Shown here one piece after another: positions 40,384 to 59,006 of a stretch of DNA of 64,000 nt. The notes beneath the pieces are model-generated. The model worked only from the letters and a program-made list of their open reading frames with translations. It searched no databases and was not told the origin of the DNA. Numbering within the stretch: position 1 is the stretch's first letter; every line of letters starts with the position of its first letter. The translations under genes and the position numbers were made by a program. The DNA is taken from assembly GCA_025965475.1 (NCBI GenBank), contig JAOPWV010000077.1, forward strand, positions 4,313 through 68,312, in the 5' to 3' direction. Source of the DNA: Frankiales bacterium (lineage in GTDB: Bacteria > Actinomycetota > Actinomycetes > Mycobacteriales > SCTD01).

Positions 40384-41721
40384 TCAGGGGCGGCCGAGGG
40401 CGCGGTAGGTCCAGCCGGCCTGGCGCCAGGCGACCGGGTCGAGGGCGTTGCGGCCGTCGAGGATGTTGCGGCCGGCGACGACCTCGGACAGGGTCGCCGG
40501 GTCCATCTCCCGGAACTCCGACCACTCGGTCAGGTGCAGGACGAGGTCGGCGCCTCGGGCGGCCTCGACCGCCGAGCTGCGGTAGCCGAGCTCGGGGTGC
40601 TGGACCTTGGCGTTCTCCATCGCCGCCGGGTCGTACACGCACACCGCGGCGCCCTGGCGCTGGATCGTGGCCGCCACGTCGAGGGCAGGGCTGTCGCGGA
40701 TGTCGTCGCTGTTCGGCTTGAAGGCGGCGCCGAGGACGGCGACCTTCATCCCGCCGAACGAGCCCCCCGCAACCTCGCGGGCGAGTTCGACCATCCGGGT
40801 CCGCCGGCGCAGGTTGATCGCGTCGACCTCCTTGAGGAACGACAGCGCCTGGTCGACGCCGAGCTCCCCGGCCCGGGCCATGAACGCGCGGATGTCCTTG
40901 GGCAGGCAGCCGCCGCCGAAGCCGAGCCCGGCGTGCAGGAACCGTCCGCCGATTCGGCTGTCGTACGACAGCGCCTTGCTCAGCAGGGTCACGTCCCCGC
41001 CGACCGCCTCGCAGACCTCGGCCATCGCGTTGATGAAGGAGATCTTGGTGGCGAGGAACGCGTTGGCCGCGACCTTCACGAGCTGCGCCGTGGCGAAGTC
41101 GGTCACGACGACGGGGGTCGGCAGGTCGATCACCGGCGCGAAGGCCGCGCGCAGCTTGGCCTCGGCCTGCTCGGACCGCACGCCGAACACCAGCCGGTCG
41201 GGGGTGAGGGTGTCCTCGACCGCGAAGCCTTCGCGCAGGAACTCGGGGTTCCAGGTCAGCTCGACGCCCACGGCCGTCGCGTCCCGCTCGAGCTGGGCGG
41301 CGAGGCGCTCCGCCGTCCCGGCCGGCACCGTCGACTTGCCCGCCACGAGCGCACCGTCGCGCAGGTGCGGGAGCAGGGCGGTGAACGCGGCGTCGACGTA
41401 GACCATGTCGGCCGCCATCTCGCCCTTCTTCTGCGGCGTGCCGACGCACAGGAAGTGCACGTCCCCGAAGGCGCCCACCTCCGCGTACGACGTGGTGAAG
41501 CGCAGCCGGCCGGAGTCGAGGTTCTTCTGCAGGAGCTCCGGCAGCCCGGGCTCGAAGAACGGCACCTCACCGTTGTTGAGCCGGTCGACCTTGCTCCGGT
41601 CCACGTCGAGCCCGAGCACCTCGAAGCCGAGTTCGGCCATGCACACGGCGTGGGTGGCACCGAGGTAGCCGGTCCCGATCACGGTCAGGCGGGGCCGGGT
41701 GGCGACGGAGGGCGAGCTCAT
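40384..41721 (-). CDS. UDP-glucose 6-dehydrogenase family protein
   Basis: LTVIGTGYLGATHAVCMAELG, GFGGGCLPKD (catalytic Cys). I prefer the ATG at 41721 over the ORF-track start at 41829. Confidence 0.9.
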   Translation of the reverse strand: MSSPSVATRPRLTVIGTGYLGATHAVCMAELGFEVLGLDVDRSKVDRLNNGEVPFFEPGLPELLQKNLDSGRLRFTTSYAEVGAFGDVHFLCVGTPQKKGEMAADMVYVDAAFTALLPHLRDGALVAGKSTVPAGTAERLAAQLERDATAVGVELTWNPEFLREGFAVEDTLTPDRLVFGVRSEQAEAKLRAAFAPVIDLPTPVVVTDFATAQLVKVAANAFLATKISFINAMAEVCEAVGGDVTLLSKALSYDSRIGGRFLHAGLGFGGGCLPKDIRAFMARAGELGVDQALSFLKEVDAINLRRRTRMVELAREVAGGSFGGMKVAVLGAAFKPNSDDIRDSPALDVAATIQRQGAAVCVYDPAAMENAKVQHPELGYRSSAVEAARGADLVLHLTEWSEFREMDPATLSEVVAGRNILDGRNALDPVAWRQAGWTYRALGRP

Positions 41722-41785
41722 GAGGCTGGAGCGTAGTGGGGCCATGGCAGTCAGTCGCCGCGCCGCGCGTCTTACCATTCCCGGC

Positions 41786-42952
41786 ATGGCCGATGTCACG
41801 GATTCGTCGTACGCGCTGTACTCCCTCACCGAGGAGCACGAGCTCCTGCGCCAGGCGGTGCGTCAGCTCGCCGAGGACAAGATCGCCCCGCGGGCGGCGG
41901 AGATCGACGAGACGGCCGAGTACCCGTGGGACGTGCACGAGGCCATCAAGCAGGCCGACCTGCTGGCGATCCACGTGCCGGAGGCGTACGGCGGCGCCGG
42001 GGCCGACCGGATCGCGCACAGCATCGTCGTGGAGGAGATTGCCCGGGTCTGCGCGTCGAGCTCGCTCATCGTGGCCGGCAACAAGCTCGGGACGATGGGG
42101 CTGATCCTGTCCGGCTCGGAGGACCTCAAAGCGCGCTACCTGCCGCTCGTGGCCCGGGGCGAGGCGACGTTCTCCTACGCGCTCAGTGAGCGCGAGGCAG
42201 GCTCGGACGCTGCGTCCATGCGCACCCGCGCGGTCCGCGACGGCGACTCGTACGTCCTCAACGGCACGAAGTGCTGGATCACCGGGGCCGGCGTCAACAC
42301 GCACTACACGGTGATGGTGAGCACCGACCCCAGCAAGGGCGCGAAGGGTGTTTCGGCGTTCGTCGTGCACGCCGACGACCCCGGCTTCTCGGTCGGCACG
42401 AAGGAGCGCAAGCTCGGCATCAAGGGTTCCCCGACCTGCGAGATCTACTTCGAGGACTGCCGCATCCCGGCGGACCGGATGATCGGCGAGGAGGGCACCG
42501 GGTTCGTCACGGCGCTCAAGACCCTCGACCACACCCGGTCGATGATCGGCGCCCAGGCCGTCGGCATCGCGCAGGGTGCGCTCGACGCGGCGGTGGCGTA
42601 CGTCAAGGAGCGCCAGCAGTTCGGCAAGGCCGTCGCCGAGTTCCAGGGCGTCCAGTTCATGATCGCGGACATGGCGATGAAGGTCGCTGCCGCGCGCACC
42701 CTGGTCTACGCGGCGAACGCCAGCGCCGAGCGCGGCGACAAGGATCTGACCTTCCTGTCCAGCGCGTCGAAGACCTTCGCGTCGGACACGGCGATGGAGG
42801 TCACCACGGACGCCGTCCAGTTGTTCGGCGGCTACGGCTACACCAAGGACTTCCCGGTCGAGCGGATGATGCGCGACGCGAAGATCACCCAGATCTACGA
42901 GGGCACCAACCAGATCCAGCGCATGGTGATGGCACGGCAGATCCTGAAGTAG
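41786..42952 (+). CDS. Acyl-CoA dehydrogenase (short/medium-chain type)
   Basis: 388 aa from MADVTDSSYALYSLTEEHELLRQ. ALSEREAGSDAASM, QLFGGYGYTKDFPVERMMRDAKITQIYEGTNQIQ. Confidence 0.92.
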   Translation: MADVTDSSYALYSLTEEHELLRQAVRQLAEDKIAPRAAEIDETAEYPWDVHEAIKQADLLAIHVPEAYGGAGADRIAHSIVVEEIARVCASSSLIVAGNKLGTMGLILSGSEDLKARYLPLVARGEATFSYALSEREAGSDAASMRTRAVRDGDSYVLNGTKCWITGAGVNTHYTVMVSTDPSKGAKGVSAFVVHADDPGFSVGTKERKLGIKGSPTCEIYFEDCRIPADRMIGEEGTGFVTALKTLDHTRSMIGAQAVGIAQGALDAAVAYVKERQQFGKAVAEFQGVQFMIADMAMKVAAARTLVYAANASAERGDKDLTFLSSASKTFASDTAMEVTTDAVQLFGGYGYTKDFPVERMMRDAKITQIYEGTNQIQRMVMARQILK

Positions 42953-43071
42953 CCCTGCTCCGCCTACGCCACGGGCGGAGGTTGCGGTGGGGTGCCCGTG
43001 GTGCTGCTCGCAACGTCCGCACGTGCAGGCGGGACGAGGCCGGGAGGGCGGACACTGTGGTGGGTGAGGGG

Positions 43072-43701
43072 CTAGAGCAACCCCTTGCTCCGGGCCAGTT
43101 GGAGCTGGGTGAAGACGAACTGGCGGATGCGGTCACCGTCGGAGATCCGGACGCCGGTGAACCGCAGACTCACGTCAGCCGGTTCCTCTTTGGCTCCTGG
43201 CCTCACGCGGACCGCGTGCGCGGCCAGGGTCAGCGGCGCGCCGACGTCCAGGTCGACGTTCATGGTGCGCCCCGGGGCCAGCTCCGGCCAGTCGGGCACG
43301 CGACAACGCAACCCGCCCTCGCTGATGTCCACCGCGACGGCGGCGTAGCTGTTCTCCTCGTGATGTAGCACGAGGGGAAGCAGGATGTCGGTGCGCACGA
43401 ACGCACGCCGCTGGCGTCTGGCGGGAGTTCCCCTGAGCTGGACGTGCCAGGTCGGCGACGGCGGAGGGGTCACCTTCGCGATGGTCACCGGCACCTCCAG
43501 GAGCCCTCCCGTTCCGCGCCAGACCATGAGGCCGGTCATGCCCACCGGAGGAAGGACGTAGCGGCCTGTCGCATCCGTCGGTGCCTCGAGCCCCAGGCCC
43601 TCATCGGTCACGGCAGTCACCGCCGCGACGAACGTATCGGCAGGCTCGTCCAACGTGATGTCGACGAGGTCGCGCACATCGACGAACTTCACTATGGACA
43701 C
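43072..43701 (-). CDS. PilZ-domain c-di-GMP receptor, YcgR-like two-domain architecture
   Basis: 209 aa with a GTG start. RRQRRAFVR (RxxxR) and DISEGGLRC (DxSxxG) motifs follow an N-terminal beta-rich domain of about 95 aa. It has noticeably more A/T-ending codons than its neighbours. Confidence 0.8.
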   Translation of the reverse strand: MSIVKFVDVRDLVDITLDEPADTFVAAVTAVTDEGLGLEAPTDATGRYVLPPVGMTGLMVWRGTGGLLEVPVTIAKVTPPPSPTWHVQLRGTPARRQRRAFVRTDILLPLVLHHEENSYAAVAVDISEGGLRCRVPDWPELAPGRTMNVDLDVGAPLTLAAHAVRVRPGAKEEPADVSLRFTGVRISDGDRIRQFVFTQLQLARSKGLL

Positions 43702-43743
43702 GGACGCACGCTAAGTCGCGTGGCTCGTCTTCGTGATCATTGA

Positions 43744-43917
43744 GACGCCGAAGCTGCCGTGTGTCGTGTCACATTCGCCGGACCACGGGCCCGCGATCCG
43801 CGTTTCGGCACTGCCACAGCAGCAGACGACGCCATCGCCGAGTCACGGCGTACGTCCGAGGACCTCGCGCGGATGAGCAGCGGACTCCAGGAGCTGGTCT
43901 CCCGCTTCCGCTACTGA
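43744..43917 (+). pseudogene. Relic of a methyl-accepting chemotaxis protein C-terminus
   Basis: Frame-1 translation ...GTATAADDAIAESRRTSEDLARMSSGLQELVSRFRY* resembles the conserved extreme C-terminus of MCP signalling domains (…ASEELSxQAEQLQxLVxRFRL). A stop at 43741 and the divergent PilZ gene leave no room for the rest of an MCP. Confidence 0.5.
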
Positions 43918-43954
43918 CACCTCGCCGGGTGCGGTCGCGTACCCGCCGGGCATA

Positions 43955-44509
43955 GTGCCGGGCATGTACGAGTATCGCCCGCCGGCGTCGGTGGGTTCCC
44001 TGGACCCGAAGCCGAACGCAGCGGCCCGCACGACGCTGAGCCGGATCATGACGACGACCGACACCAACCTGCACGGCAACGTGCACGGCGGCGTGATCAT
44101 GAAGCTGGTGGACGACGTCGGCGGGGCCGTCGCGGCCCGGCACTCCGGGGGCCGGGCCGTGACCGTCTCCATGGACGAGATGGTCTTCCTGGTGCCGGTC
44201 AACGTCGGCGACCTCGTCCACGCGCATGCCCAGGTCAACTGGACCGGGCGCAGCTCGATGGAGGTCGGGGTCCGCGTCGTGTCGGAGCGCTGGGACGACA
44301 GCTCGACGCCGACGGTGCACACCGGGTCGGCGTACCTCGTCTACGTCGCACTCGACGAGGGCGGCAACCCCCGTGCGGTGCCGCCGGTCGTGCCGGAGAC
44401 ACCGAAGGACCGTCAGCGGTACCGGGAGGCGGAGATCCGCCGGCAGACCCGGCTGGCCCGGCGCGAGGCGATCCTGCGGCTGCGCGAGCAGGAGTCGGAC
44501 GAGCGCTAG
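43955..44509 (+). CDS. Acyl-CoA thioesterase (hotdog fold, YciA-like)
   Basis: 184 aa. TNLHGNVHGGVIMKLVDDVGG...VTVSMDEMVFLVPVNVGDLV. An alternative ATG lies at 43964. Confidence 0.85.
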   Translation: MPGMYEYRPPASVGSLDPKPNAAARTTLSRIMTTTDTNLHGNVHGGVIMKLVDDVGGAVAARHSGGRAVTVSMDEMVFLVPVNVGDLVHAHAQVNWTGRSSMEVGVRVVSERWDDSSTPTVHTGSAYLVYVALDEGGNPRAVPPVVPETPKDRQRYREAEIRRQTRLARREAILRLREQESDER

Positions 44510-44522: not shown

Positions 44523-45230
44523 CTAGGGCTTGGGCGCCAGTCGCCGCAGCCCCGCCACGTCCACTCCTGCCGTGAGCGTGACCCGCTCGGCGGCCGCCAC
44601 GGCGGCAGCGTCCCCCTCGCGCAGCAGCACCAGGCTTGCGCCGGCGGCCAGTGCCGTCAGCAGCACCGACGCGCCCAGGGGGTCGCCCGGGACCAGGCTG
44701 GTGAGCAGCCGGTCGCCGCGACCGACCCCGTCCAGGAGGCGGACCGGCCGGCCGCCGGCCTCGACCACCGGAGCGGCCGGCCGCGGGCCGCCGTAGTGGT
44801 CGGCGTACGACGGAACCTCGCGGGCGTAGTCGAGCACCGAGCCCGGCAGGTCGCCCGCCGGGGCGCCCAGAGGGTGACCGGACAACGCGAGGACGTCATC
44901 CACCCCGGCGTCCAGTGCCGCCTCGGCGTCCTGCGCGGCGACGAAGGCCGCGCCGCAGCCGGCCAGGTCACCGGCGTCCTCGACCAGGACGACGGTCGCG
45001 CCCGTGGCCGCGCCGGCGAGCAGCAGCGCCACCGTCTGCCAGTGCAGCGGCAGGAGCAGGCCGACCCGGTCCGGGCGCCCGAGCGCGTCGACGAGCAGGT
45101 TGGCGGACTTGGCCACCCAGTTGGCGGTGGTCGCGCCGGACAGCTCGACCCGCCCCGGCCCGTCGTACAGGGTCAGGAGGGGTTGCGCGGGATCCCGGTC
45201 ACCGGCCAGTCCGCCGGTGAGCTCGGTCAG
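44523..45230 (-). CDS. TIGR03089-family protein (acyl-adenylate-enzyme-like remnant fold, conserved next to LCP)
   Basis: LLTLYDGPGRVELSGATTANWVAKSANLL is typical of the family. There is no ATG/GTG/TTG near the expected N-terminus. The best candidate start is the CTG at 45230, overlapping the LCP stop (CTGA). Confidence 0.7.
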   Translation of the reverse strand: MTELTGGLAGDRDPAQPLLTLYDGPGRVELSGATTANWVAKSANLLVDALGRPDRVGLLLPLHWQTVALLLAGAATGATVVLVEDAGDLAGCGAAFVAAQDAEAALDAGVDDVLALSGHPLGAPAGDLPGSVLDYAREVPSYADHYGGPRPAAPVVEAGGRPVRLLDGVGRGDRLLTSLVPGDPLGASVLLTALAAGASLVLLREGDAAAVAAAERVTLTAGVDVAGLRRLAPKP

Positions 45231-46894
45231 GGTGCGCAGGGGTCGTCCAGGGCGGTGCTGACCTTCGGCGGCGTGCTCGCGGTCGCGCTGGAGGTGCCGG
45301 TCGGGGTGCCGCTCAGGGTGACCGCCTGCGCCGCGGTGTACGACGTGCCGAGCACGACCTGCAGGACGTTGCCCAGCGCCGGGTCGGACTGCAGGGCGGC
45401 GCCCGGGATGGCGGCGGCCAGGGTACGTGCCGAGTCGGCCTTGGTCGGGCCGTACGACACGATCGTGCCCGTGGCGCCGGACCCGCGGGTCTGCGGGTCG
45501 CCGACCACCTGGAAGCCGAGCTGGCCCAGCTCGCCGGCCGCGCGGCGGCCCAGGCCGTTGATGCCGGAGCCGTTGTAGACCTGCACGCGGATCGCGGAGG
45601 GCGGCACGATCAGGCCGGCGGGCGCGGTGCTGGCGGACGCCTTCGGGGCCGGCGTGCCCGGCGCGATGTCCTGGCGGATCTCGGAGAACAGTTCGTCGTT
45701 CTTGGTTTTGTCGAGCAGCACGACCGAGCCGAGGCCAGGCAGGTAGCCGTCGATGGTGCTGACGTGGACCGTCGTGAAGATGACGTTGCCGGCGCCGAGG
45801 TTGCGCATCCGCAGGGCCAGCGAGCGCATGGTGCCGAAGTCGAGGTTCTCGTCGGCTTGCAGCGACGCCGTGGCGACGTTGAGGAACCCGTTGAGCTTGA
45901 ACGGGTTGGCCAGCGTGCCGGCCGAGAGCACCTTGCGCACCATGGCGCCGATGAACTGCTGCTGCCGTTTGATCCGGTCGATGTCGCCGTTGGCCAGGCC
46001 CTTGCGCTGCCGGACGAAGGACAGGGCGACCGCGCCGCTGATGTGGTGCTTGCCCGCGGTGAGGTTGATGCCCGAGTCGTGCTCGACCGCCGGCTTGGAC
46101 AGACACACGTCGACGCCGCCGAGCTTGTCGACCATCGACTGGAAGCCCTGGAAGTCCACCTGCAGGTAGTGGTCGATCTGTACGCCGGTGAACTGCTGCA
46201 CGGTGGCGATGAGCAGTTTGGGGCCGCCCGTGGCGAACGCGGAGTTGATCCGGTCCTGGCGGGCGTTGTGGACCTTCCCGGTCGTGGGGTCGGTGAACTC
46301 AGGGATGTCCACGATCGAGTCGCGCGGGAAGCTGACCAGCTGCACCTTGTCGCTGTTTCCGCCGTACAGGTGCGCGAGGATCACGGTGTCCGAACGCTGC
46401 CCGGTCACGAACGTGGCGCCGGAGCCCTGCACGCCCTGGCCGGCCTTGAGGTTGCCGCGGCTGTCGGAGCCGACGATGAGGAAGTTCTGCGCGTTGTTCG
46501 GCGCGGCGGCAACCGGCTGCTGGCCCGGCAGGGTGCCGAGGATGCCCTTGAGCTTGGTGATGTTGCCCTCGTAGTGGCCGACGAGGAAGTACCCGGTGAC
46601 CGCGACGGCCAGCACGCTGATCGAGGCCAGCACGGCGATCCACGAGAGCACCCGGGCGGCGCGGCGGTGGCGCTTGCCCTTGGGACCCTCCGGGGCGACC
46701 TGCCGCGTCGGAGGCCGCAGCGGCGGACGGGGCGACGCGTGACGCCCGGGCGTGCCCGGCGGGCGCGGCGGGACGCCGCCGCGACCACGCGGGTCGAGGT
46801 GGGGCGGCAGTGGTCGGGGCGACGGCGGGTACGGCTCGGAGGACGGCTGCGACGGGTTGCTTCCGCCCGCCCTCCAGTCCCGTGGGTCGCTCAC
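45227..46894 (-). CDS. LytR-CpsA-Psr (LCP) family glycopolymer ligase with C-terminal LytR_C domain
   Basis: 555 aa. Pro-rich cytoplasmic N-terminus, one TM helix, NFLIVGSDSR...RSDTVILAHL...SFPRDS core, and a C-terminal LytR_C-like region. Confidence 0.9.
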   Translation of the reverse strand: MSDPRDWRAGGSNPSQPSSEPYPPSPRPLPPHLDPRGRGGVPPRPPGTPGRHASPRPPLRPPTRQVAPEGPKGKRHRRAARVLSWIAVLASISVLAVAVTGYFLVGHYEGNITKLKGILGTLPGQQPVAAAPNNAQNFLIVGSDSRGNLKAGQGVQGSGATFVTGQRSDTVILAHLYGGNSDKVQLVSFPRDSIVDIPEFTDPTTGKVHNARQDRINSAFATGGPKLLIATVQQFTGVQIDHYLQVDFQGFQSMVDKLGGVDVCLSKPAVEHDSGINLTAGKHHISGAVALSFVRQRKGLANGDIDRIKRQQQFIGAMVRKVLSAGTLANPFKLNGFLNVATASLQADENLDFGTMRSLALRMRNLGAGNVIFTTVHVSTIDGYLPGLGSVVLLDKTKNDELFSEIRQDIAPGTPAPKASASTAPAGLIVPPSAIRVQVYNGSGINGLGRRAAGELGQLGFQVVGDPQTRGSGATGTIVSYGPTKADSARTLAAAIPGAALQSDPALGNVLQVVLGTSYTAAQAVTLSGTPTGTSSATASTPPKVSTALDDPCAP

Positions 46895-47033
46895 CGGCAG
46901 TGCTCTCCTCGTGTCGGGGTCTCATCCCGAGGACGTGCGATAGCGCGGCAGGGTTCCCTCAGCGCGCACCCCAGGTTACCGGGGGTGACCTGAGGTGGCG
47001 CTGTGCCGCGCCAGGGCGGCTAACCTGCGGCGC

Positions 47034-48098
47034 ATGAAGGCACTGGTCCTGTCCGGTGGCGCCGGCACGCGTCTGCGCCCCATCACCCACACGAGCGCCA
47101 AGCAGCTGGTCCCGGTCGCGAACAAGCCGGTGCTGTTCTACGGCCTCGAGGCGATCCGCGATGCGGGGGTCACGGACGTCGGCATCATCGTCGGCGACAC
47201 GGCCGCCGAGATCGAGGCCGCGGTCGGCGACGGCAGCGCGCTCGGGATCCGGGTGACCTACATCCGCCAGGAGGCACCCCTCGGGCTGGCGCACTGCGTG
47301 CTCATCGCCCGTGACTTCCTCGGCGACGACGACTTCGTCATGTACCTCGGCGACAACTTCATCATCGGCGGCATCACCGAGCTCGTCGCGGAGTTCCAGG
47401 CCGAGCGGTACGACGCCCAGATCCTGCTGACCCGCGTCGACAACCCGTCGCAGTTCGGCGTCGCGGAGCTCGGGCCCGACGGGCAGGTCTGCACGCTCGT
47501 CGAGAAGCCCCAGGAGCCCAAGAGCGACCTGGCCCTGGTCGGCGTCTACATGTTCACGCCGGTGATCCACGACGCCGTCATGGCGATCAAGCCGTCCGGG
47601 CGGGGCGAGCTGGAGATCACCGACGCCATCCAGTGGCTGATCGACGAGGGCAGGACCGTCAGCCCGCACCTGGTCACCGGCTACTGGAAGGACACCGGCC
47701 GGCTCGAGGACATGCTCGAGTGCAACCGCAAGGTGCTCGAGTCGCTCGAGCCGTCGGTGCGCGGGACGGTCGACGCCGAGTCCCGGGTGATCGGCCGGGT
47801 GGTCGTCGAGGAGGGCGCCGTCATCGAGCGGTCCACGGTCCGGGGGCCGGCGATCATCGGCCGCGACACGGTCATCCGCGACACGTACGTCGGCCCGTTC
47901 ACGTCGATCTACTTCGGGTGCACCCTCGAGGACACCGAGATCGAGCACTCCATCGTGCTGGAGCAGTCGACGATCCGGGGCGTCCGCCGGATCGAGGACT
48001 CGCTGATCGGCAAGGAGGTGGAGGTCGCCCCGTCGTCCGCCCGCCCGCGGGCGCACCGGCTCATGCTCGGCGACCACTCCAAGGTCTCCATCGCCTGA
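47034..48098 (+). CDS. rmlA: Glucose-1-phosphate thymidylyltransferase (long form)
   Basis: MKALVLSGGAGTRLRPITHTSAKQLVPVANKP, with a left-handed beta-helix C-terminal half. 354 aa from the ATG at 47034. Confidence 0.9.
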   Translation: MKALVLSGGAGTRLRPITHTSAKQLVPVANKPVLFYGLEAIRDAGVTDVGIIVGDTAAEIEAAVGDGSALGIRVTYIRQEAPLGLAHCVLIARDFLGDDDFVMYLGDNFIIGGITELVAEFQAERYDAQILLTRVDNPSQFGVAELGPDGQVCTLVEKPQEPKSDLALVGVYMFTPVIHDAVMAIKPSGRGELEITDAIQWLIDEGRTVSPHLVTGYWKDTGRLEDMLECNRKVLESLEPSVRGTVDAESRVIGRVVVEEGAVIERSTVRGPAIIGRDTVIRDTYVGPFTSIYFGCTLEDTEIEHSIVLEQSTIRGVRRIEDSLIGKEVEVAPSSARPRAHRLMLGDHSKVSIA

Positions 48099-48128
48099 GC
48101 GCACTGCGATCTCTGGGATACTGAGCCG

Positions 48129-49115
48129 ATGCGTGTCTTCGTGACCGGCGGCGCCGGCTTCATCGGGTCCCACTTCGTGCGTCAGCTGCTGACTGACGCC
48201 TACCCGGCGTACGCGGGCGCCGAGGTGACCGTCTACGACAAGCTCACCTATGCCGGGAACCTCGAGAACCTCGTGCCGGTGGCCGACTCGCCGCGGTACC
48301 GGTTCGTGCAGGGCGACATCGTCGACGGTGCCCAGCTCGACAAGGAGCTGCCCGGTCACGACCTGGTCGTCAACTTCGCCGCCGAGACCCACGTCGACCG
48401 GTCCATCACCGGCGCGCAGGACTTCGTCGTCACCAACGTGCTCGGCGCGCAGACCCTGTTCGACGCCTGCCTGCGCAACGGGATCCCGCGGGTCGTGCAG
48501 ATCGGCACCGACGAGGTCTACGGCTCGATCTCCGCGGGCTCGTGGACCGAGAACGAGCCGCTGCTGCCGAACTCGCCGTACTCCGCCGCGAAGGCGGGCG
48601 CGGAGCTGCTCGCCCGCGCGTACGCCGTGACGTACGGGCTCAACATCTCGACGACGCGCTGCTCCAACAACTACGGGCCGTACCACTTCCCGGAGAAGGT
48701 CATCCCGCTGTTCGTGACCAACCTCATCGACGGCAAGAAGGTGCCGCTGTACGGCGAGGGGCTCAACGTCCGCGACTGGCTGCACGTCGACGACCACTGC
48801 CGCGGCATCGCACTGGTCGCCGAGAAGGGCGACAAGGGCGAGAGCTACAACATCGGCGGTGGCCGCGAGCTGTCCAACCGGGAGCTCACCGAGGCGCTGC
48901 TCGCGGCCTTCGGGGTCGGCTGGGAGATGGTCGAGCACGTCGAGGACCGCAAGGGCCACGACCTGCGCTACTCGGTGGACCACTCGAAGCTCGGCGCCAT
49001 GGGCTACGCGCCGCAGCACACCTTCGAGGACGGGCTGGCGGAGACGATCGCCTGGTTCCGCGCCAACGAGGCCTGGTGGCGGCCGCTCAAGGAGAAGGCG
49101 GCGCTCGGCTCGTGA
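48129..49115 (+). CDS. rmlB: dTDP-glucose 4,6-dehydratase
   Basis: 328 aa. VTGGAGFIGSHF, TDEVYG, YSAAKAG (YxxxK). Confidence 0.95.
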   Translation: MRVFVTGGAGFIGSHFVRQLLTDAYPAYAGAEVTVYDKLTYAGNLENLVPVADSPRYRFVQGDIVDGAQLDKELPGHDLVVNFAAETHVDRSITGAQDFVVTNVLGAQTLFDACLRNGIPRVVQIGTDEVYGSISAGSWTENEPLLPNSPYSAAKAGAELLARAYAVTYGLNISTTRCSNNYGPYHFPEKVIPLFVTNLIDGKKVPLYGEGLNVRDWLHVDDHCRGIALVAEKGDKGESYNIGGGRELSNRELTEALLAAFGVGWEMVEHVEDRKGHDLRYSVDHSKLGAMGYAPQHTFEDGLAETIAWFRANEAWWRPLKEKAALGS

Positions 49116-50017
49116 GCCTCGCCCTCCTCGTCACCGGGGCCGGCGGACAGCTGGGCAGCGACCTGCTCGAGGCGGTCCGGACCTCGCGGGACGTCTTCGC
49201 CCGGGGGCTCCTGCGCAAGGACCTCGAGCTCACCGACCCGGCAGCCGTGCAGGACATGCTCCTGGGCTGGGAGCGGATCGTGCGCGCCGACAACCCCGAG
49301 CACCGGCTCGTCGTCATCAACGCGGCGGCCTACACGGCCGTCGACGCGGCGGAGACCGACGAGGACATGGCGTACGCCGTGAACGCCACCGCACCCGCGT
49401 TGCTCGCGGCGTCCTGCGCCCGCATCGGCGCCCGGCTCGTGCACGTCAGCACCGACTACGTGTTCCCCGGTGACGCCGCCCGGCCGTACGAGGTCGGCGA
49501 CCCGACCGGCCCGAAGAGCGCCTACGGGCGCACCAAGCTGGCCGGTGAGCTGGCGGTCCGCGAGATCCTGCCCGACGCGTCCCACGTGGTGCGCACGGCG
49601 TGGGTGTACGGCGCCACCGGGCAGAACTTCGTCAAGACGATGGTCCGGCTGGAGAAGGAACGCGAGACGGTCAGCGTGGTCGACGACCAGCGCGGCTCGC
49701 CCACCTGGTCACGGGACCTGGCGAACGGGCTGCTCGCCCTTGCCGGCTCGGACGCACCGGCCGGGACCTACCACGCGACGAACGCGGGCGACACCACCTG
49801 GCACGGGTTCACCCGCGCCGTCTTCGAGGAGCTGGGCGCCGACCCGGGGCGGGTGCTCGCCACGACGACCGACGCGTTCCCGCGGCCCGCGCCCCGCCCG
49901 GCATACAGCGTGCTGTCGCCGAGCGCCTGGGAGCAGGCCGGTCTGCCGCCGCTGCAGGGTTGGCGGGAGGCCCTCGCCGAGGCGTTCAGCACCTCAGGGA
50001 CGGCGCTGCGCGGCTGA
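49112..50017 (+). CDS. rmlD: dTDP-4-dehydrorhamnose reductase
   Basis: The GTG overlaps the rmlB stop. LLVTGAGGQLG, STDYVFPG, YGRTKLAGE. Confidence 0.88.
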   Translation: MSLALLVTGAGGQLGSDLLEAVRTSRDVFARGLLRKDLELTDPAAVQDMLLGWERIVRADNPEHRLVVINAAAYTAVDAAETDEDMAYAVNATAPALLAASCARIGARLVHVSTDYVFPGDAARPYEVGDPTGPKSAYGRTKLAGELAVREILPDASHVVRTAWVYGATGQNFVKTMVRLEKERETVSVVDDQRGSPTWSRDLANGLLALAGSDAPAGTYHATNAGDTTWHGFTRAVFEELGADPGRVLATTTDAFPRPAPRPAYSVLSPSAWEQAGLPPLQGWREALAEAFSTSGTALRG

Positions 50018-50029
50018 CGCCGCCGGACG

Positions 50030-51208
50030 TCAGCGCCGGCGGCCGAGCAGGCGGCGCAGCCCGCGCAGCAGCCGCATCGCCAGGTGGGCACGCTCGTCGA
50101 GGGTGCGCACCAGCACCGGCCGCAGCGCGACCCGCCGGTCGAGGAGCGCGGCCTTCTCGTCCGTGGTGCGGTGCAGGTCGGCCAGCAGGTGGCTGTTGTG
50201 CATCCGGAGCGTCTCGAGCTCCTGGGTCAGCTGCTGCAGGACGGTGAGCGGGTAGTACCGGCCCTCCGCGGCCGCGGCCGCCTGCTCGCGGGCCTCCTCC
50301 TCGCGCGCCCACGCGGCGAGGGTGTCCTGCTCGTCGAGGACGGCCTTCATCGGGTGACCCCAGAAGAAGGCGAACAGCGTCCGGTCGGGGTCCTCCGTCG
50401 TCCACGCCTCGTCGGCGGCGAGGACCTGCTCGACGACGGCGTCCCGCTCCGGGCCCGGGGTCCCGTGCACCGCGCTGTTGAACGACAGGACCGGGTAGGC
50501 GAGGGCGCCCCCGATCGGGTTGAGCTCCTCGAGCCGGAAGTACCGCCGGACCGTGTCGAGGATCAGCTCGGAGTGGATCGCCTCGGTCGGGTCGCCGGCC
50601 AGCATGGTCGGCAGGTGCGGGTAGTTCGGGGCGGAGCGGAACGCCTCCGGCAGCTGCTCGACGAGTTCCTGCGCGGCCTGCCACTGCGCATACCCGTACT
50701 GGTTGCGGTGCGGCCCGACGTAGTCGACGGAGGCGAAGACGCCGTCCGCCGGCAGCACCTCGCAGACCCGCCTGAGCACCTTGTCGAGGTAGGCGATGTG
50801 GTGCGCGGCGGCGAAGTTGACGACGAGGTCGTAGCCGTCCTCGGGCAGGTCGGCGGTGTTGATGTCGCGGGCGTAGTAGCGCGCGGGCAGGCCCGCGACG
50901 GCCGCCGCCTTGCGCGCCTGGTCGAGCAGCTCGTCGGAGATGTCGGTGCCGACCGCCTCCTCGACGATCCCCGCCTCGAGCAGCTGACGCTCCACCCAGC
51001 CGTTGCCGCAGTTCAGGAACAGCGCCTTGCGGAACGTCCGCCCGCCGGTGACGTCCTTGAGGTGGGTGTACCAGTCGGTGTCCGGCTTGCCGGTGGCGCG
51101 ACGTTCGATGTACGCCGCCACCTGCGGGAGGTCGTTCCAGTAGCCGCCGCCGTAGTACACCGACGAGTCCTGGGCGACGGTGTAGCTGCGGGTGTCCGGT
51201 TCGGCCAT
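50030..51208 (-). CDS. Class I SAM-dependent methyltransferase with ~100-aa C-terminal coiled-coil and basic amphipathic terminus (WbdD-like candidate)
   Basis: 392 aa. The FLNCGNGWVER...GTDIS...DLVVNF Rossmann methyltransferase core is followed by heptad-like EEEAREQAAAAAE...LQQLTQELETLRMHNSHLLADLHRTTDEKAALLDRR and a terminal LLRGLRRLLGRRR. Confidence 0.8.
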   Translation of the reverse strand: MAEPDTRSYTVAQDSSVYYGGGYWNDLPQVAAYIERRATGKPDTDWYTHLKDVTGGRTFRKALFLNCGNGWVERQLLEAGIVEEAVGTDISDELLDQARKAAAVAGLPARYYARDINTADLPEDGYDLVVNFAAAHHIAYLDKVLRRVCEVLPADGVFASVDYVGPHRNQYGYAQWQAAQELVEQLPEAFRSAPNYPHLPTMLAGDPTEAIHSELILDTVRRYFRLEELNPIGGALAYPVLSFNSAVHGTPGPERDAVVEQVLAADEAWTTEDPDRTLFAFFWGHPMKAVLDEQDTLAAWAREEEAREQAAAAAEGRYYPLTVLQQLTQELETLRMHNSHLLADLHRTTDEKAALLDRRVALRPVLVRTLDERAHLAMRLLRGLRRLLGRRR

Positions 51209-51272
51209 GGACGCACGCTACCGGCGCAGGTGCGGTCGAGCGGCCACCACGACGGTGCCGCCGGAGGTGGCC

Positions 51273-51587
51273 TCACTGCGCCGTCGGCGGCCCGGAGGTC
51301 TGCGACCTGGCGCGCCGGTTCCACAGGGTGACGGCGCCGAGCGCGACCCCGAGGCCCGCCCCGACCGACGCCGCGAGGAAGGGGAGGGCCATGCCGGTGT
51401 GCTGCGGCGCATACAGGAAGGCGAGCGGGAACGACAGCACGATGCCGACGACGAGCCCGCCCAGTGCCGCGACGCCCAGGAAGAAGAGCACCGCGAGGGG
51501 CTTGCCGCCGCGCGGGACCGGGACGTCGCCGGTCAGCACGCCGCGGTCCAGCTGGCGGAGCCACGGTTGGACGCGCATGTTCGGCAT
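51273..51587 (-). CDS. Hypothetical membrane protein
   Basis: 104 aa with 2-3 TM helices and codon bias like the neighbours. No family recognised. Confidence 0.5.
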   Translation of the reverse strand: MPNMRVQPWLRQLDRGVLTGDVPVPRGGKPLAVLFFLGVAALGGLVVGIVLSFPLAFLYAPQHTGMALPFLAASVGAGLGVALGAVTLWNRRARSQTSGPPTAQ

Positions 51588-51633
51588 CTTCTACCGCCGT
51601 GGGCCGGTTGGACAGCGATGCGTCAGCTCGTCG

Positions 51634-52200
51634 TCAGCGCAGGCCCTGGACGATCAGCAGCAGTCCGAAGACGACGAACGCGGCGGCTGCGCCGTACTTG
51701 ATGACCCGCTCCGGCAGGTGCTTGCCCAGCAGGGCGCCGACGAGGATCGCCAGCGCATCGGCTGCCACCATGCCGACGGTGCTGCCGAGCCAGGTGCCCA
51801 GCCAGCCCTCGCGGGTCGCCAGCGTGACCGTGGCGAGCATGGTCTTGTCGCCCAGCTCGGCGAGGAAGAAGGCGACCGCGACCGCGACGATGGCGTTGCG
51901 CGTCGTACGGCTCGCCTTCGCCTGCTCCTCCTCGTCGAGGCTGTCGCCGCGCAGCGTCCAGGCCGCGAACGCGAGGAAGGCCACGCCGGCGAGGACCGCG
52001 ATCGGCTTGGTCGGCAGCGCGGTGCCCACGACCACGCCCAGGCCGACCGAAGCCAGGTGCACGACGGCGGTGGCGACGGTGATGCCGATCAGCACGTGCA
52101 GGATCTTGAAGCGGGTGGCGAACGTCATGGCCATCAACTGGCTCTTGTCGCCGAGCTCCGCCAGGAAGATGACTCCGGTGCTGAGCAGGAAGGCGTACAT
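51634..52200 (-). CDS. GDT1/TMEM165 (UPF0016) family cation (Mn2+/Ca2+) transporter
   Basis: 188 aa from MYAFLLSTG (ATG at 52200). It has two E-x-G-D-K-(S/T) motifs, LAELGDKSQL and LAELGDKTML. The ORF-track start at 52368 would run through the riboswitch. Confidence 0.88.
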   Translation of the reverse strand: MYAFLLSTGVIFLAELGDKSQLMAMTFATRFKILHVLIGITVATAVVHLASVGLGVVVGTALPTKPIAVLAGVAFLAFAAWTLRGDSLDEEEQAKASRTTRNAIVAVAVAFFLAELGDKTMLATVTLATREGWLGTWLGSTVGMVAADALAILVGALLGKHLPERVIKYGAAAAFVVFGLLLIVQGLR

Positions 52201-52285
52201 CTGCGGGGGTGTCCTGTCCGCCCGGCCGCAGCACCCGTCAGAGGACGCCTTCGACCAGGCACGTCTCGATGAGTGGGTGCCGGTC

Positions 52286-52386
52286 GAAGGTCTCGTCCGC
52301 CTGCCGACGTGAATCGGCGGGCTGCCGGCACCGGGTTCCCGCGGGAACCAGCATGTCGATGCCGGCATTGAGGACTACTCCCCTTC
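52286..52386 (-). promoter_or_regulatory. yybP-ykoY (Mn2+) riboswitch aptamer
   Basis: Minus-strand RNA: GAAGGGGAGUAGUCCUCAAU-[GCCGGCA-UCGACAUGCU-GGUUCCCGCGGGAACC-CGG-UGCCGGC]-AGC-[CCGCCGAUUCACGUCGGCAGG]-CGGACGAGACCUUC. It has the conserved GGGGAGUAG, the UCGNCA.../CGG internal loop, and GAGACCUUC closing P1 with GAAGG. A 14-bp hairpin at 52248-52290 re-uses CCUUC and would serve as the expression platform. Confidence 0.8.
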
Positions 52387-52502
52387 GCGCAAGATCGTAG
52401 CGGCTCGCCCCCCGGGCTCCCCTTTGTGGAACGTCCACAGCACCAGGGTGCTGAGGAAGTTCCGAAAGCCCGTGGGAGGAGGGAGGCGGGCAGACTGGTG
52501 CG

Positions 52503-52952
52503 ATGCCGTTGTGGGGGGAGTACGCGCCGAGCAGCGAGCAGTGGGTGCGCGACGAGGTGGAGCACTACGAGCGCACCGACGGGACCGCGTGGGGCGACCG
52601 GCCGGTCGTCGTCCTCACCAGCCGTGGTGCCGTCTCCGGCAAGCTCCGCAAGACGCCGTTGATGCGCGTCGAGCACAAGGGGATCTACGCCGCTGTGGCC
52701 TCGATGGCGGGCGCGGGCAGCCACCCGGCCTGGTACCACAACGTGCTCGCCGAGCCGCGGGTCGAGCTGCAGGACGGCCCGCGCCGGCAGGACATGATCG
52801 CCCGGGAGCTGTCCGGCCCGGAGCGGGCGGCCTGGTGGTCGCGCGCCTGCACGGTCTTCCCGTCGTACGTGGACTACCAGAGCAGGACCCGGCGCCGGAT
52901 CCCGGTGTTTCTGCTGGAGCCGCTGCCTCAGGAGCCCAGCGCGAGCCGGTAG
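52503..52952 (+). CDS. Deazaflavin (F420)-dependent nitroreductase family oxidoreductase (Ddn/DUF385-like)
   Basis: 149 aa. LTSRGAVSGKLRKTPLM...GSHPAWYHNVLAEPRVELQ...IPVFLLEP. Confidence 0.85.
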   Translation: MPLWGEYAPSSEQWVRDEVEHYERTDGTAWGDRPVVVLTSRGAVSGKLRKTPLMRVEHKGIYAAVASMAGAGSHPAWYHNVLAEPRVELQDGPRRQDMIARELSGPERAAWWSRACTVFPSYVDYQSRTRRRIPVFLLEPLPQEPSASR

Positions 52953-53992
52953 GCCTGCCGGGTCAGCTCGGCGCACCGCTCCCAGGTGAACTGTGCGGCA
53001 TGCCGGCGCCGGGCCCGCGGGTCGCCCGGGTCGCCCAGCACCCGTTCCAGGGCGGCGGCGAAGGCGGCGGGGGAGCCCTGCTCGGCGTACGACGTGACCG
53101 TGCCGCCGACCTCGCGCAGCACCGGCAGGTCGCTTGCGACCACGGGCGTGCCGGCCGCCAGCGCCTCGACGACCGGGATGCCGAATCCCTCGTCGCGGCT
53201 GGGCAGGACGAGCGCCGAGGCGCCCGCGACGACGGCGCGCAGGCGCTCGTCGTCCAGGAACCCGGGGGTGACGCAACCGGAGACGTCCACCTGCTCGCCC
53301 CAGCCCGTGGGCCCCACCAGGACGAGCGGAGGCGCGTCGGGGAGGAGCCGGTGCGCGGCGAGCAGCGTGCCCAGGTCCTTGCGTGGCTCGAGGGTCCCGA
53401 CGAAGACGAGGTACGACGGGGGCAGCCCGAGCGACGCGCGCAGGGCCTCGTCGGGCGGTGCGGCGGTGTACCACTCGGGGTCCACGCCGAGCGGCGTCAC
53501 GACGATCGGGGCGCGGACGTCGTACTCCTCGCGCACCTGCTCGGCGACCGCGGTGCTCGGCGTGATCACGACCGACGCGCGGCGCAGCGACCGGGGGACG
53601 AGCGTGCGGTAGCGGGCGCTGGCACTGCTGACGGTCTCGGGCATCCGCAGGTACGACAGGTCGTGGATGGTCACGACCCCGGCGGCGCGGCGCAGCGGCG
53701 GGAGCACGAAGTTGGTGGCGTGGAAGACGTCCAGCTTGCCGGCGAGCAGCTCGACGGGCGGCCACTCGACCCGGGCCCAGGCCTCCTGGAGGCCGCGGGC
53801 CGGCGCCGGTCGGGCGGCCACCCGGACGCCTTCGGGTACGACGGCCGGCAGCGCCTCGCGGCCGCGGAAGGTGAACGCCGTGGCCACGAGCTCGTCGTCG
53901 TGTGCGGCCAGCGCCCGCAGCAGCGCGAGGGTGTAGCGGCCGACCCCGGTCCTGTTGCCCAGCAGCGGGGTGGCGTCGAGCCCGATCCGCAT
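52928..53992 (-). CDS. GT4-family (GT-B) glycosyltransferase
   Basis: 354 aa from MRIGLDATPLLGNRTGVGRY, ending with PSRDEGFGIPVVEALAAGTPVV (E-x7-E). Confidence 0.88.
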   Translation of the reverse strand: MRIGLDATPLLGNRTGVGRYTLALLRALAAHDDELVATAFTFRGREALPAVVPEGVRVAARPAPARGLQEAWARVEWPPVELLAGKLDVFHATNFVLPPLRRAAGVVTIHDLSYLRMPETVSSASARYRTLVPRSLRRASVVITPSTAVAEQVREEYDVRAPIVVTPLGVDPEWYTAAPPDEALRASLGLPPSYLVFVGTLEPRKDLGTLLAAHRLLPDAPPLVLVGPTGWGEQVDVSGCVTPGFLDDERLRAVVAGASALVLPSRDEGFGIPVVEALAAGTPVVASDLPVLREVGGTVTSYAEQGSPAAFAAALERVLGDPGDPRARRRHAAQFTWERCAELTRQAYRLALGS

Positions 53993-54002
53993 GGCCGCCA
54001 CG

Positions 54003-55559
54003 TCAGTCGAGCAGCCGGTGCTTGTCGACGATGTCGTGCCACCGGTCGGCGAAGGCGTCCTCGCTGTACTCCTGCGCGCGGTGGGTCGCTGCGGCGGACA
54101 GGCGCGCGCGCAGGTGCTCGTCCTCGGCGACCTCCGCGGTGCGGGCCAGCAGCTGGGCCGGCGTCGTCCACCGGAAACCGTCGACGTTCTCGCGCACGAT
54201 CTCCTTCTGCCCGGCTCGGTCGATGACGACGGGCACGCAGCCACCGGCCATCGCCTCGACGGTCGTCATGCCGAAGTGCTCGTTGGCCCAGGGCGTCTTG
54301 TGCTCGTCCTCGCTGTAGCCGGTGGCGGACCAGAACACCGACGACGTCGACAGCAGCTGCTCGACGAGCTTGCGCGGGACGTTGGCGATCACCTCGACCG
54401 GCAGGCCGGCGCCGGCGGCCCGCACCTGGTCGACGTAGTTCTGCTGTGAGTCCTCCATGCCGCCGAGGACGTACATCCGCCAGTCCCGCGGGATGACCCC
54501 GGACCGGATGCCCTCGGCGAAGAACTGCACCATCTCGAGCTGGCGCTTGGCGTGGCCGAGGCCGGGCGAGAAGAACCGGCCCACGGTGATGACGGCCTTC
54601 TCGCGCTCCGGCGCGGGATGCAGCCGCTGGACCTGGATGGGCGGGAACAGCAGTTCGGCCTCGGTCTTCCACAGCTGCTGGATGTAGCCCCGGGTGTATT
54701 CGCTGTTGGCCATCACCGTGTCGTAGCCCTCGAGGAACGACAGGTTCCGCGGGTCGCGCATGAGCCACGGGAAGCGCTGCGCCACCCGGGCCCGCGGGCC
54801 GTAGTGGCCGCCCTCCAGGCGCATCCGGCTCACCGCGACGCCCAGCCGGCGCCGGTCGTCGCCGCCCGGGGAGAACGTCTCGGTCCGGAAGTGCAGCTCG
54901 GTGCCCCGGACGGAGGCCGGGAAGTCCAGATGGTGCGTGGTGAACTGCGAGCCCACCTCGATCTCGGCGAGCACGTGGCCCTGCTCGTCGCCGATGGTCA
55001 GCACCCGGGGCTCCGGCATGCCGGGGCCGCCGAGCTCCATCCGGATGCGCCGGGCCTTCGCGTCGGGCGACAGCGTCAGGACCGCGTCCTCCGTGGTCCA
55101 GGCCCACTGCCGCAGCCGACCGCCCTCGGGGGGGAACCAGCCGACCCCGTAGTCGACCCCGCCGGTGTGCGCGCGCAGCAGCGGCCCGAGGTTCCGGGTG
55201 GCGGCTCGCCGCCAGGGCGACAGGTCGGCGTCGAACGGCGTCGGGAAGTAGCAGAGGTACGCCGCGTGCCTGGCCCTCGGCCGCAGCCGGCTGGTGTACG
55301 TCCCGTTGACGAACAGGTCGTACTCCTCGGACACCGCGGCCAGGTGCAGGTCGCCGCGGTCCGGCTCGACACGCAGGGTGCACCGCGACAGGTCGAGGCC
55401 GAGGTGGTCGGCGAGCTCGTCCTTGTCGACCTCGGTGTGGCCGATGAGGTCGACCTGGACGCCGTCCTGGGACAGCACTTCGGCGATCATCCCGGAGTGG
55501 CGTTCGCCGCCACCCTGGCTGTGCCAGAAGCGGTCGTAGATCGCGGCCCGCTTGGTCAT
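54003..55559 (-). CDS. Glycosyltransferase with GT4-type C-terminal half and uncharacterised N-terminal ~250 aa
   Basis: 518 aa from MTKRAAIYDRFWHSQGGGERH. The C-terminal EHFGMTTVEAMAGGCVPVV motif is present. The ATG overlaps the upstream GT2 stop (ATGA). Confidence 0.85.
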   Translation of the reverse strand: MTKRAAIYDRFWHSQGGGERHSGMIAEVLSQDGVQVDLIGHTEVDKDELADHLGLDLSRCTLRVEPDRGDLHLAAVSEEYDLFVNGTYTSRLRPRARHAAYLCYFPTPFDADLSPWRRAATRNLGPLLRAHTGGVDYGVGWFPPEGGRLRQWAWTTEDAVLTLSPDAKARRIRMELGGPGMPEPRVLTIGDEQGHVLAEIEVGSQFTTHHLDFPASVRGTELHFRTETFSPGGDDRRRLGVAVSRMRLEGGHYGPRARVAQRFPWLMRDPRNLSFLEGYDTVMANSEYTRGYIQQLWKTEAELLFPPIQVQRLHPAPEREKAVITVGRFFSPGLGHAKRQLEMVQFFAEGIRSGVIPRDWRMYVLGGMEDSQQNYVDQVRAAGAGLPVEVIANVPRKLVEQLLSTSSVFWSATGYSEDEHKTPWANEHFGMTTVEAMAGGCVPVVIDRAGQKEIVRENVDGFRWTTPAQLLARTAEVAEDEHLRARLSAAATHRAQEYSEDAFADRWHDIVDKHRLLD

Positions 55560-58098: not shown

Positions 58099-59006
58099 AG
58101 CTCTTCCGCGAAGTCCGCCTGCATCCGGGTGAACACCCGGCGCGCGAACAGGAAGAGCAGCCCGGCGATGACGAACCCGATCGCCAGGTTGCGCAGGTAG
58201 AAGGCGTAGCCGGGATCGGCCAGGGCGTGGCCGATGGCGTGGGGTGGCTTGGTGTTGACGTAGCCGTCCTTGACGAAGATGGCCCGCTGGAAGGTCGTCA
58301 CGACCGTGGCCATCGGGTTGAGGAAGTACGCCCAGAACAGGTGGTACTGGTCGAGCTTGTCCTTCACCAGTGTCGAGGTGTAGAGGATCGGGTTGAGCCA
58401 GAACCAGACCAGCAGGGCGATCTCGACGGCGTGCGCGGTGTCGCGGTACCGGACGTTCAGCGCCGAGACCAGGTAGCTGAAGGCGGTCGAGAACAGCAGG
58501 AGCAGCGCCAGCGCCGGGACGATGAGCAGGAAGGCCGGGCTGAAGTCGTGCCGGAAGATCGTGGTGACGAGCAGCAGAACGACCAGCTGCAGGACGAAGT
58601 GCACGAGGGCATAGCCGACCGCCGACAGCGGCAGGACCTGGAGCGGGAAGCGCACCTTCTTCACCAGACCGGCGTTGCCGACGACGGTGCCGGACGCGGT
58701 CGACACCGCGGCGGAGAAGGCCGTCCAGGGCAGCAGGCCGCACATCAGGAAGATGGCGAAACCCGGGACGCCGTTGTTGAGCACCACGCCGAAGATCAGG
58801 TAGTAGATGCCCATGAGCAGCAGCGGATTGGCCAGGCTCCACGCGAAGCCGAGCACGGACCCCTGGTACTTGACCTTCAGGTCCTTGCGCACGAGCTGAC
58901 TGAGCAGCTCCCAGCTGACCCGGCTCTGCGCCCGGGCGCGGCGGCGCGCCAGTTCGCTCCGGTCGCCGAGCGGTGGGACGGCCGCGCCAGGAGCCTCAGT
59001 GGCCAC
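58095..59006 (-). CDS. ABC-2 type polysaccharide exporter permease (Wzm/TagG-like)
   Basis: 303 aa. VRKDLKVKYQGSVLGFAWSLANPLL is the hallmark start of Wzm/TagG. 6 TM helices. Confidence 0.9.
   Translation of the reverse strand: MATEAPGAAVPPLGDRSELARRRARAQSRVSWELLSQLVRKDLKVKYQGSVLGFAWSLANPLLLMGIYYLIFGVVLNNGVPGFAIFLMCGLLPWTAFSAAVSTASGTVVGNAGLVKKVRFPLQVLPLSAVGYALVHFVLQLVVLLLVTTIFRHDFSPAFLLIVPALALLLLFSTAFSYLVSALNVRYRDTAHAVEIALLVWFWLNPILYTSTLVKDKLDQYHLFWAYFLNPMATVVTTFQRAIFVKDGYVNTKPPHAIGHALADPGYAFYLRNLAIGFVIAGLLFLFARRVFTRMQADFAEEL

Follow-up and report, generated by a model that had tools for sequence, protein, structure and literature searches.

A MotI-like two-barrel PilZ protein encoded in a lineage-specific insertion in a Frankiales bacterium

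Introduction

MotI of B. subtilis (also YpfA or DgrA; PDB 5vx6) is a PilZNR-PilZ protein with a chain of 216 residues that serves as a c-di-GMP-dependent clutch by binding MotA, and YcgR of E. coli (5y6f) and PP4397 of P. putida (2gjg, 3kyf) are flagellar brakes in which a PilZN domain is combined with the PilZ domain. Neither ycgR in E. coli nor motI in B. subtilis lies in the flagellar operons, both genes being located away from them. The two-barrel fold class to which these receptors belong also includes MrkH of Klebsiella (5kgo), a transcription factor, and PlzA of Borreliella (7mie), which binds nucleic acid. In actinomycetes, c-di-GMP signalling is understood mainly through the Streptomyces effectors BldD and RsiG, which are not PilZ proteins, and an experimentally characterised PilZ-type receptor from an actinomycete was not found in the literature consulted on c-di-GMP signalling. 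Galperin and Chou (2019) define the second c-di-GMP motif of PilZ domains as [D/N]hSxxG and describe PilZN as having additional helices (10.1101/814665). They further describe actinomycete PilZ proteins with an unrecognised six-stranded N-terminal domain under the tentative name "PilZN5"; Geodermatophilus obscurus is said to have two such PilZN5-PilZ proteins, and experimental data on the type are not given (10.1101/814665).

Here, a PilZ gene from the metagenome-assembled genome of an uncultured Frankiales bacterium is compared with these systems. It lies in a 64-kb stretch of DNA that is called the window below; the coordinates of the gene, of the parts of its product and of its immediate surroundings are collected in Table 1.

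Table 1. Positions within the window of the PilZ gene, the segments of its product and the adjoining features.
Feature	Position	Strand	Basis
PilZ gene	43072..43701	minus	GTG start, 209 aa; ORF present; AF2 pLDDT 93.9
N-terminal six-stranded beta-barrel, residues 1-93	43423..43701	minus	AF2 model, PilZNR matches of relatives, conservation
Inter-domain linker with RxxxR motif, Q97-R98-R99-A-F-V-R103	43393..43413	minus	sequence, conservation, alignment to MotI
PilZ beta-barrel and C-terminal alpha-helix, residues 97-197	43111..43413	minus	Pfam PF07238, AF2 model
Second c-di-GMP motif, D125-I-S127-E-G-G130 ([D/N]hSxxG)	43312..43329	minus	sequence, conservation
Upstream segment of about 80 nt common to the gene and its 80% homolog	43702..43785	minus	alignment with L010 660-742
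Insert of 1002 bp (PilZ gene and both intergenic flanks)	42953..43954	no strand	synteny of related loci
Acyl-CoA dehydrogenase (ACAD)	41699-42952	plus	Pfam/NCBIfam
4HBT/YciA-like thioesterase	43955-44509	plus	Pfam/NCBIfam

Domain architecture

The protein corresponds exactly to the deposited record GenBank MCW2724482.1, "PilZ protein [Frankiales bacterium]"; it is a recognisable and already annotated PilZ protein, and current knowledge is not challenged by it. An earlier reading of the DNA without database searches (the sequence-only reading) had pointed to an ORF of 209 residues carrying the c-di-GMP motifs RRQRRAFVR and DISEGG, and both motifs are indeed read there, the first as residues 95-103 with its core R99-A-F-V-R103 encoded at 43393-43407. 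The HMM search proposed in that reading gave a match to Pfam PilZ (PF07238), whose gathering score is 22.5, at 59.5 bits, spanning residues 97-197 and model positions 1-101 of 102, and since the match starts only at residue 97, the N-terminal region of about 95 residues that had been marked off in front of the motifs is borne out as well. The Pfam scan found no domain besides PilZ in the 209-residue protein, and NCBIfam returned a PilZ-type paralog domain alone, below threshold. The N-terminal domain is acidic, with a pI of 4.5, and the whole protein has a pI of 6.1.

The AF2 model built on the family alignment (pLDDT 93.9) comprises a barrel at residues 12-89, the linker, a second barrel at 104-182 and a helix at 186-205. 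Its N-terminal domain is all beta, with strands at 12-17, 23-31, 36-39, 56-63, 66-78 and 84-89, and Foldseek superposes its PilZ part on those of BcsA, Alg44 and MapZ. When the full-length family profile was compared with the PDB, MotI/YpfA (5vx6) was found at E 1.8e-14 and PP4397 and YcgR at E 2e-8 each, and in the profile the linker motif aligns with QRRQYVR of MotI. MotI is also the top match of Foldseek against the PDB (5vx6_A, E 4.4e-13, 209 aligned columns, with a TM-score of 0.55 that possibly results from a differing orientation of the domains), followed by PlzD, MrkH, PP4397 and YcgR (the latter two at E about 1e-8) and then PlzA. The two-barrel xPilZ-PilZ architecture is established, and in sequence and fold the window protein shows all the features by which the PilZ family is recognised. 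It is very probably a PilZ-class c-di-GMP receptor.

As to the kind of N-terminal barrel, a PilZN domain as in YcgR is excluded: PF07317, for which a search had likewise been proposed, gave no match to the window protein or to a single one of the 109 relatives. PilZNR (PF12945) gave no match to the window protein, whether searched whole or as the N-domain fragment; among the isolated N-domains of relatives, it matched 20 of 52, with a best E-value of 8e-9. A profile of these 52 N-domains had no significant match in the PDB and did not find MotI, and hhalign of the N-domain profile with the N-domain of MotI was marginal (E 0.029, probability 1.7%), since the domain is too divergent to be matched at the sequence level by itself. 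Its assignment is based on the fold and on the Pfam matches of the relatives, and by these the nearest type of the window protein is MotI/PilZNR. The YcgR-like architecture suggested in the sequence-only reading thus holds for the two-barrel layout, which both the profile and Foldseek recover, but not for the N-domain, which is a divergent PilZNR/MotI-like one rather than PilZN.

Distribution and conservation of the family

A word-indexed search yielded five relatives, and an exhaustive search yielded 349 cluster representatives at E <= 1e-3. Of these, 67 passed E <= 1e-10 and 7 passed E <= 1e-30; with few exceptions, the representatives are 200-230 residues long and matched over the full length. 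A scan of GTDB genomes gave nothing close, the best relative there having 33% identity. The family alignment and the conservation analysis comprise 109 relatives from the exhaustive search, all of which match Pfam PilZ and 27 of which match PilZNR. Among them, R99, R103 and G130 are invariant, while W61, W85, Q97, R98, D125, E128, F181 and R193 are each conserved in 90% or more. The homologs at 98%, 80% and 68% identity all have an intact reading frame. A neighbour-joining tree places the closer relatives (35-80% identity) in a clade of their own, apart from the flagellum-linked members of the family, and this clade, to which the window protein belongs, has retained the two c-di-GMP motifs and the tryptophans of the N-domain in full. 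The two tryptophans, W61 and W85, lie in the N-terminal barrel and are absent from the MotI alignment; they may be the mark of an actinomycete xPilZ type or may contact the ligand or the second barrel. They also occur in the flagellum-linked sequences of L001, L004 and L006.

The sources of the relatives at 35-47% identity are contigs of actinomycete appearance and Micromonosporaceae. Homologs with 40-42% identity occur in the cultured Krasilnikovia cinnamomea (GCA_004217545.1; 42%, locus L101) and in Krasilnikovia sp. MM14-A1004. Overall, the family was seen in Acidothermaceae, Acidimicrobiales, Micromonosporaceae and Frankiales-type MAGs. The remark in the sequence-only reading that PilZ receptors are uncommon in many actinomycete lineages is fair for Streptomyces venezuelae, which has no PilZ proteins (PMC4151990), but the family does exist in the groups just named.

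An inserted gene with atypical codon usage

The gene stands out by its third codon positions. By a manual count, the sequence-only reading had arrived at roughly 30 codons ending in A or T, far more than in the flanking genes, and the actual number is 31 of 209, where about 10 would be expected at the background rate. The resulting GC3 of 0.852 compares with a mean of 0.952 (sd 0.029) for 52 other window ORFs, each taken over its final 210 codons; with z = -3.4 and a binomial P of 3e-8 for 31 or more such codons, the gene is atypical among the window ORFs, on which the proposed GC3 comparison was run. A single ORF in the window has a lower GC3, and that one is an antisense artefact in which GC1 exceeds GC3. 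The codons ATA, AGA, CTA, AAA, ACT, CCT, GAT and GGA are 5-40 times over-represented in the PilZ gene. By contrast with GC3, its GC1 of 0.72 and GC2 of 0.48 are typical of the window, and its overall GC of about 68-70% is close to the 72% of the host. The flanking intergenic DNA had been described as visibly less GC-rich too, which could not be upheld: the 3' intergenic stretch (42953-43071) has a GC content of 74.8%, above the window mean of 72%, and the 5' stretch (43702-43954) has 67.2%, which deviates by no more than about 1.4 sd from the mean of those window stretches in which no gene was called (72.5%, sd 3.7%). Since these flanks are not clearly atypical, the unusual composition is that of the gene itself and not of a wider pocket. 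Nor is low GC3 a trait of the family, because the distant homologs have a GC3 like that of their neighbours.

The location of the gene between an acyl-CoA dehydrogenase and a thioesterase gene, as first described, was confirmed by identification of both flanks, and the insert in which it lies sits in an otherwise conserved block of purK, purE, UDP-glucose dehydrogenase, ACAD, thioesterase and LCP genes. A metagenome homolog with 98% identity has the same neighbours as the window gene. A scan of metagenomes with the thioesterase produced 80 loci (L014-L093; 63-73% identity), in none of which tblastn or a family-profile hmmsearch detected a family member. An ACAD gene lies upstream on the same strand in 23 loci, and the gap between it and the thioesterase gene measures 72 bp or less in eight of these. 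The ACAD-thioesterase junction is variable, the rest of the 23 loci holding unrelated inserts of 0.6-5 kb, often with an LCP gene. From the eight close junctions and the lack of a PilZ gene in all 80 loci, it follows that 42953-43954 is a lineage-specific insert at a variable junction. The homolog with 80% identity (L010) has a different context, being flanked by an FtsX-like permease and by a luciferase-like monooxygenase, the latter read from its translation. In the alignment of the window with L010, homology comprises the ORF and about 80 nt upstream of it and ends directly after the stop codon.

Within the shared upstream segment are the palindrome TGATCA and a hexamer of the form TANNNT, which reads TAGCGT in the window and TAGCCT in L010 and ends 6 nt before the GTG; no Shine-Dalgarno sequence was seen upstream of this start codon. 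The segment is probably the gene's own promoter and would give rise to a leaderless mRNA. Scans of 42800-44100 for the sigma-70 consensus and for intrinsic terminators returned nothing; across the window, no regulatory RNA or riboswitch was found with Rfam at gathering thresholds, and tRNAs are likewise lacking.

As regards origin only, the gene could also be native and have been relocated within its genome, its low GC3 being due to low expression and hence weak codon selection. GC1, GC2 and overall GC content are in line with this, as is the actinomycete or Micromonosporaceae provenance of the relatives at 35-47% identity. We nevertheless regard a native origin as doubtful, considering that a GC3 close to 0.85 is seen in no other genuine gene of the 64-kb window, that the low value is not shared by the family and that the boundaries of the cassette are sharp.

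Between the window gene and the 80% homolog, dN/dS is 0.43 (dS 0.26), and 13 positions with A/T-ending codons are common to both. The 98% homolog differs from the window gene by four non-synonymous and no synonymous changes, and the adjacent ACAD gene shows one difference in about 1.2 kb. Because of the synteny indel, the differing context of the 80% homolog, the dN/dS of about 0.43 and the 4:0 ratio of changes, an acquisition or relocation of the gene is supported, together with a purifying selection that would be relaxed, yet not absent; horizontal acquisition or relaxed selection had already been suspected from codon usage, and the synteny indel, the L010 context and the dN/dS now lend substance to this suspicion. 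The elevated dN/dS could indicate a changed function or a decaying one. In the second case, the gene would be a transferred passenger that has no partner in its host and drifts towards loss, with a product that may still bind c-di-GMP but produces no output. The lineage-specific insertion, the un-ameliorated codon usage with its 13 shared positions, the exclusively non-synonymous changes beside a nearly unchanged ACAD gene and the small number of close relatives (the seven representatives at E <= 1e-30) would all suit such a passenger. Yet the frame is intact down to 68% identity, dN/dS is below 1, the clade has lost neither of the c-di-GMP motifs nor the tryptophans of the N-domain and the promoter-like upstream region is conserved, and decay is for these reasons an improbable explanation.

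Flagellar and non-flagellar surroundings

Among the ORFs of the 64-kb window that were read or scanned, there are no flagellar, pilus, cellulose, alginate, GGDEF or EAL genes, in agreement with the earlier description of the PilZ gene as an orphan lacking the first four of these in the window. Two second-messenger and signalling genes elsewhere in the window, one for an adenylate cyclase of class III that has an Ad_Cy_reg domain (29569-30537) and one for an FHA and LuxR-type regulator (576-1190), are unrelated to c-di-GMP.

The accompanying statement that the partner of the protein is unknown was too strong, as distant family members (25-33% identity) are found inside flagellar operons. This applies to all five two-domain relatives in reference genomes for which the neighbours could be read. 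In two Acidimicrobiales MAGs (L001 and L003), the PilZ gene comes after the genes for FlhA (FHIPEP, E 1e-249) and for an FlhF-like protein, which was called by eye and has no Pfam match. In three further MAGs (L004, L006 and L008), two of them Acidothermaceae and the other an uncultured member of the Actinomycetes, it follows a sigma factor gene and FlbD, with FlgN on the opposite strand; the cluster of sigma factor, FlbD and FlgN was checked by Pfam on L004 and FlbD also on L006 and L008, the remainder being taken from the translations. The module formed by the FliA/WhiG-like sigma factor, FlbD, PilZ and the opposite-strand FlgN occupies L004 2883-5551, L006 7573-10378 and L008 7680-10426, and would amount to a second c-di-GMP input beside a sigma-28-like gene. 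Flagellar genes are absent, on the other hand, from all nine contexts of the closer relatives with 35-98% identity (the window, L009, L010, L012, L094, L095, L096, L100 and L101). This split between flagellar and non-flagellar surroundings is not decisive, since ycgR of E. coli and motI of B. subtilis are themselves unlinked to flagellar operons.

The surroundings of the clade members have features of their own. Components of partner-switching systems lie near several of the relatives (L096 4554-7070, L101 522-6689 and L095 14390-14746): P0010 has a gene for a GAF-SpoIIE-HATPase_c_2 protein directly downstream, and four STAS, one SpoIIE and one HATPase_c_2 protein are encoded near the Krasilnikovia homolog. 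As these families are abundant in actinomycetes, their proximity may be due to chance. In the window, a cell-wall glycopolymer cluster extends over 45227-63761 with genes for an LCP transferase, an RmlA-like nucleotidyltransferase, RmlB, RmlD, a methyltransferase, an ABC ATPase and permease, a PMT_2-like membrane protein, a hexapeptide acetyltransferase and three glycosyltransferases, of which two look like GT4 and one like GT2 by eye from their translations. Within 61241-62939, GC3-based calling leaves 1.7 kb without a convincing ORF, and the long minus-strand ORF at 61492-62913 looks like an antisense artefact (GC1 of 0.96 above a GC3 of 0.79, no Pfam match). A conserved link between the PilZ gene and the glycopolymer cluster was considered and rejected, the 80% homolog and the relatives at 35-47% identity being located in unrelated contexts.

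These contexts bear on a different reading of the function, according to which the clade (35% identity or more) has become detached from the flagellar system and passes the c-di-GMP signal to another partner. Candidates would be the synthesis of envelope glycopolymers, partner switching through a STAS/SpoIIE/anti-sigma module and nucleic acid, the last on the model of MrkH and PlzA. We entertain such a repurposed receptor only tentatively. It would explain why all known contexts of the clade are non-flagellar and variable and why the clade stands apart from the flagellum-linked members in the tree. The window gene is 1.5 kb away from the LCP, rhamnose, glycosyltransferase and ABC cluster, P0015 adjoins a teichoic-acid Glyphos_transf gene, and the SpoIIE-type neighbours of P0010 and of the Krasilnikovia homolog would accord with a partner-switching target; the spores of Krasilnikovia are reportedly non-motile, and the fold is common to MrkH and PlzA. 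However, no neighbour recurs convincingly, the STAS and SpoIIE genes are very abundant in actinomycetes, and a brake role is compatible with the observed contexts in view of the equally unlinked ycgR and motI. Moreover, the low pI of the N-domain and of the whole protein gives no hint of DNA binding, and the W61/W85 signature is shared by flagellum-linked family members.

Discussion

The explanation to which we incline, with a confidence that slightly exceeds an even chance, is that of a MotI-like c-di-GMP switch which likely acts on the flagellar motor and whose gene was inserted at its present site. The protein would be a stand-alone cytoplasmic xPilZ-PilZ receptor in which the RxxxR linker connects a degenerate N-terminal PilZ-like barrel with a canonical PilZ barrel. 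By analogy to MotI, YcgR and PP4397, an intercalated c-di-GMP dimer would be clamped by R98, R99 and R103 of the linker and by D125, S127 and G130 of the barrel, and, as homology suggests, its binding would draw the two barrels together and create a surface for a partner protein. The likeliest partner would be the flagellar motor, either the stator protein MotA or the rotor protein FliG, so that high c-di-GMP levels would slow or disengage rotation. The motor as the target is about as probable as not and presupposes a flagellated host; many of the lineages filed under Frankiales are flagellated. On the genomic side, the gene and the roughly 80 nt upstream that belong to it were inserted in this lineage into the conserved purE / UDP-glucose dehydrogenase / ACAD / thioesterase / LCP block; the gene retains a foreign-looking codon bias and evolves under relaxed but not absent purifying selection. 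Against the explanation speak the nine non-flagellar contexts at 35-98% identity, the 64-kb window without flagellar genes, the N-domain that does not reach PilZNR and whose profile does not find MotI, the elevated dN/dS with its two possible meanings and the fact that proteins of the same fold, MrkH and PlzA, do other jobs.

The gene reveals a family of MotI-like two-barrel receptors in Frankiales-type and Micromonosporaceae lineages, a family that is found partly inside and partly outside flagellar operons and whose gene can move as a small cassette. What makes it modestly interesting is how cleanly a cassette-like insertion can be traced, along with the split between flagellar and non-flagellar members, which raises the question of a brake versus a repurposed receptor. 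A more far-reaching proposal, which we consider rather unlikely, is that the relatives at 35-80% identity from Frankiales-type MAGs, Krasilnikovia and soil metagenomes make up a distinct actinomycete clade of MotI-like receptors that is uncoupled from flagella, moves between sites as a self-contained leaderless cassette and couples c-di-GMP to a target outside motility. If this were true, the target might be, for example, envelope glycopolymer assembly or a partner-switching sigma-factor module, and the clade would supply a PilZ-type effector where reliance on receptors of the BldD and RsiG type has been assumed.

In comparison with the known systems, the window protein shares with YcgR and PP4397 the two-barrel type of c-di-GMP receptor and the RxxxR motif in the linker, whereas the extra helices of the YcgR PilZN domain have no counterpart in its N-domain, which is all beta in the AF2 model. 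It falls into the same two-barrel fold class as MrkH and PlzA, to which its fold matches are weaker than to MotI, and it differs from this transcription factor and this nucleic acid-binding protein in not being basic (pI 6.1). With MotI, it has in common the two barrels, the QRRxxVR linker motif, the xxSxGG motif and a similar chain length; the two proteins are only 18% identical, and the window protein differs in an N-domain that fails the PilZNR model and carries W61 and W85, as well as in its actinomycete host. The PilZN5-PilZ proteins are, as far as their published description goes, likewise actinomycete-restricted xPilZ-PilZ proteins of roughly 200-250 residues with an N-domain that escapes the Pfam models PilZN and PilZNR, and going by this description, the window protein is possibly a member of the PilZN5 type of Galperin and Chou.
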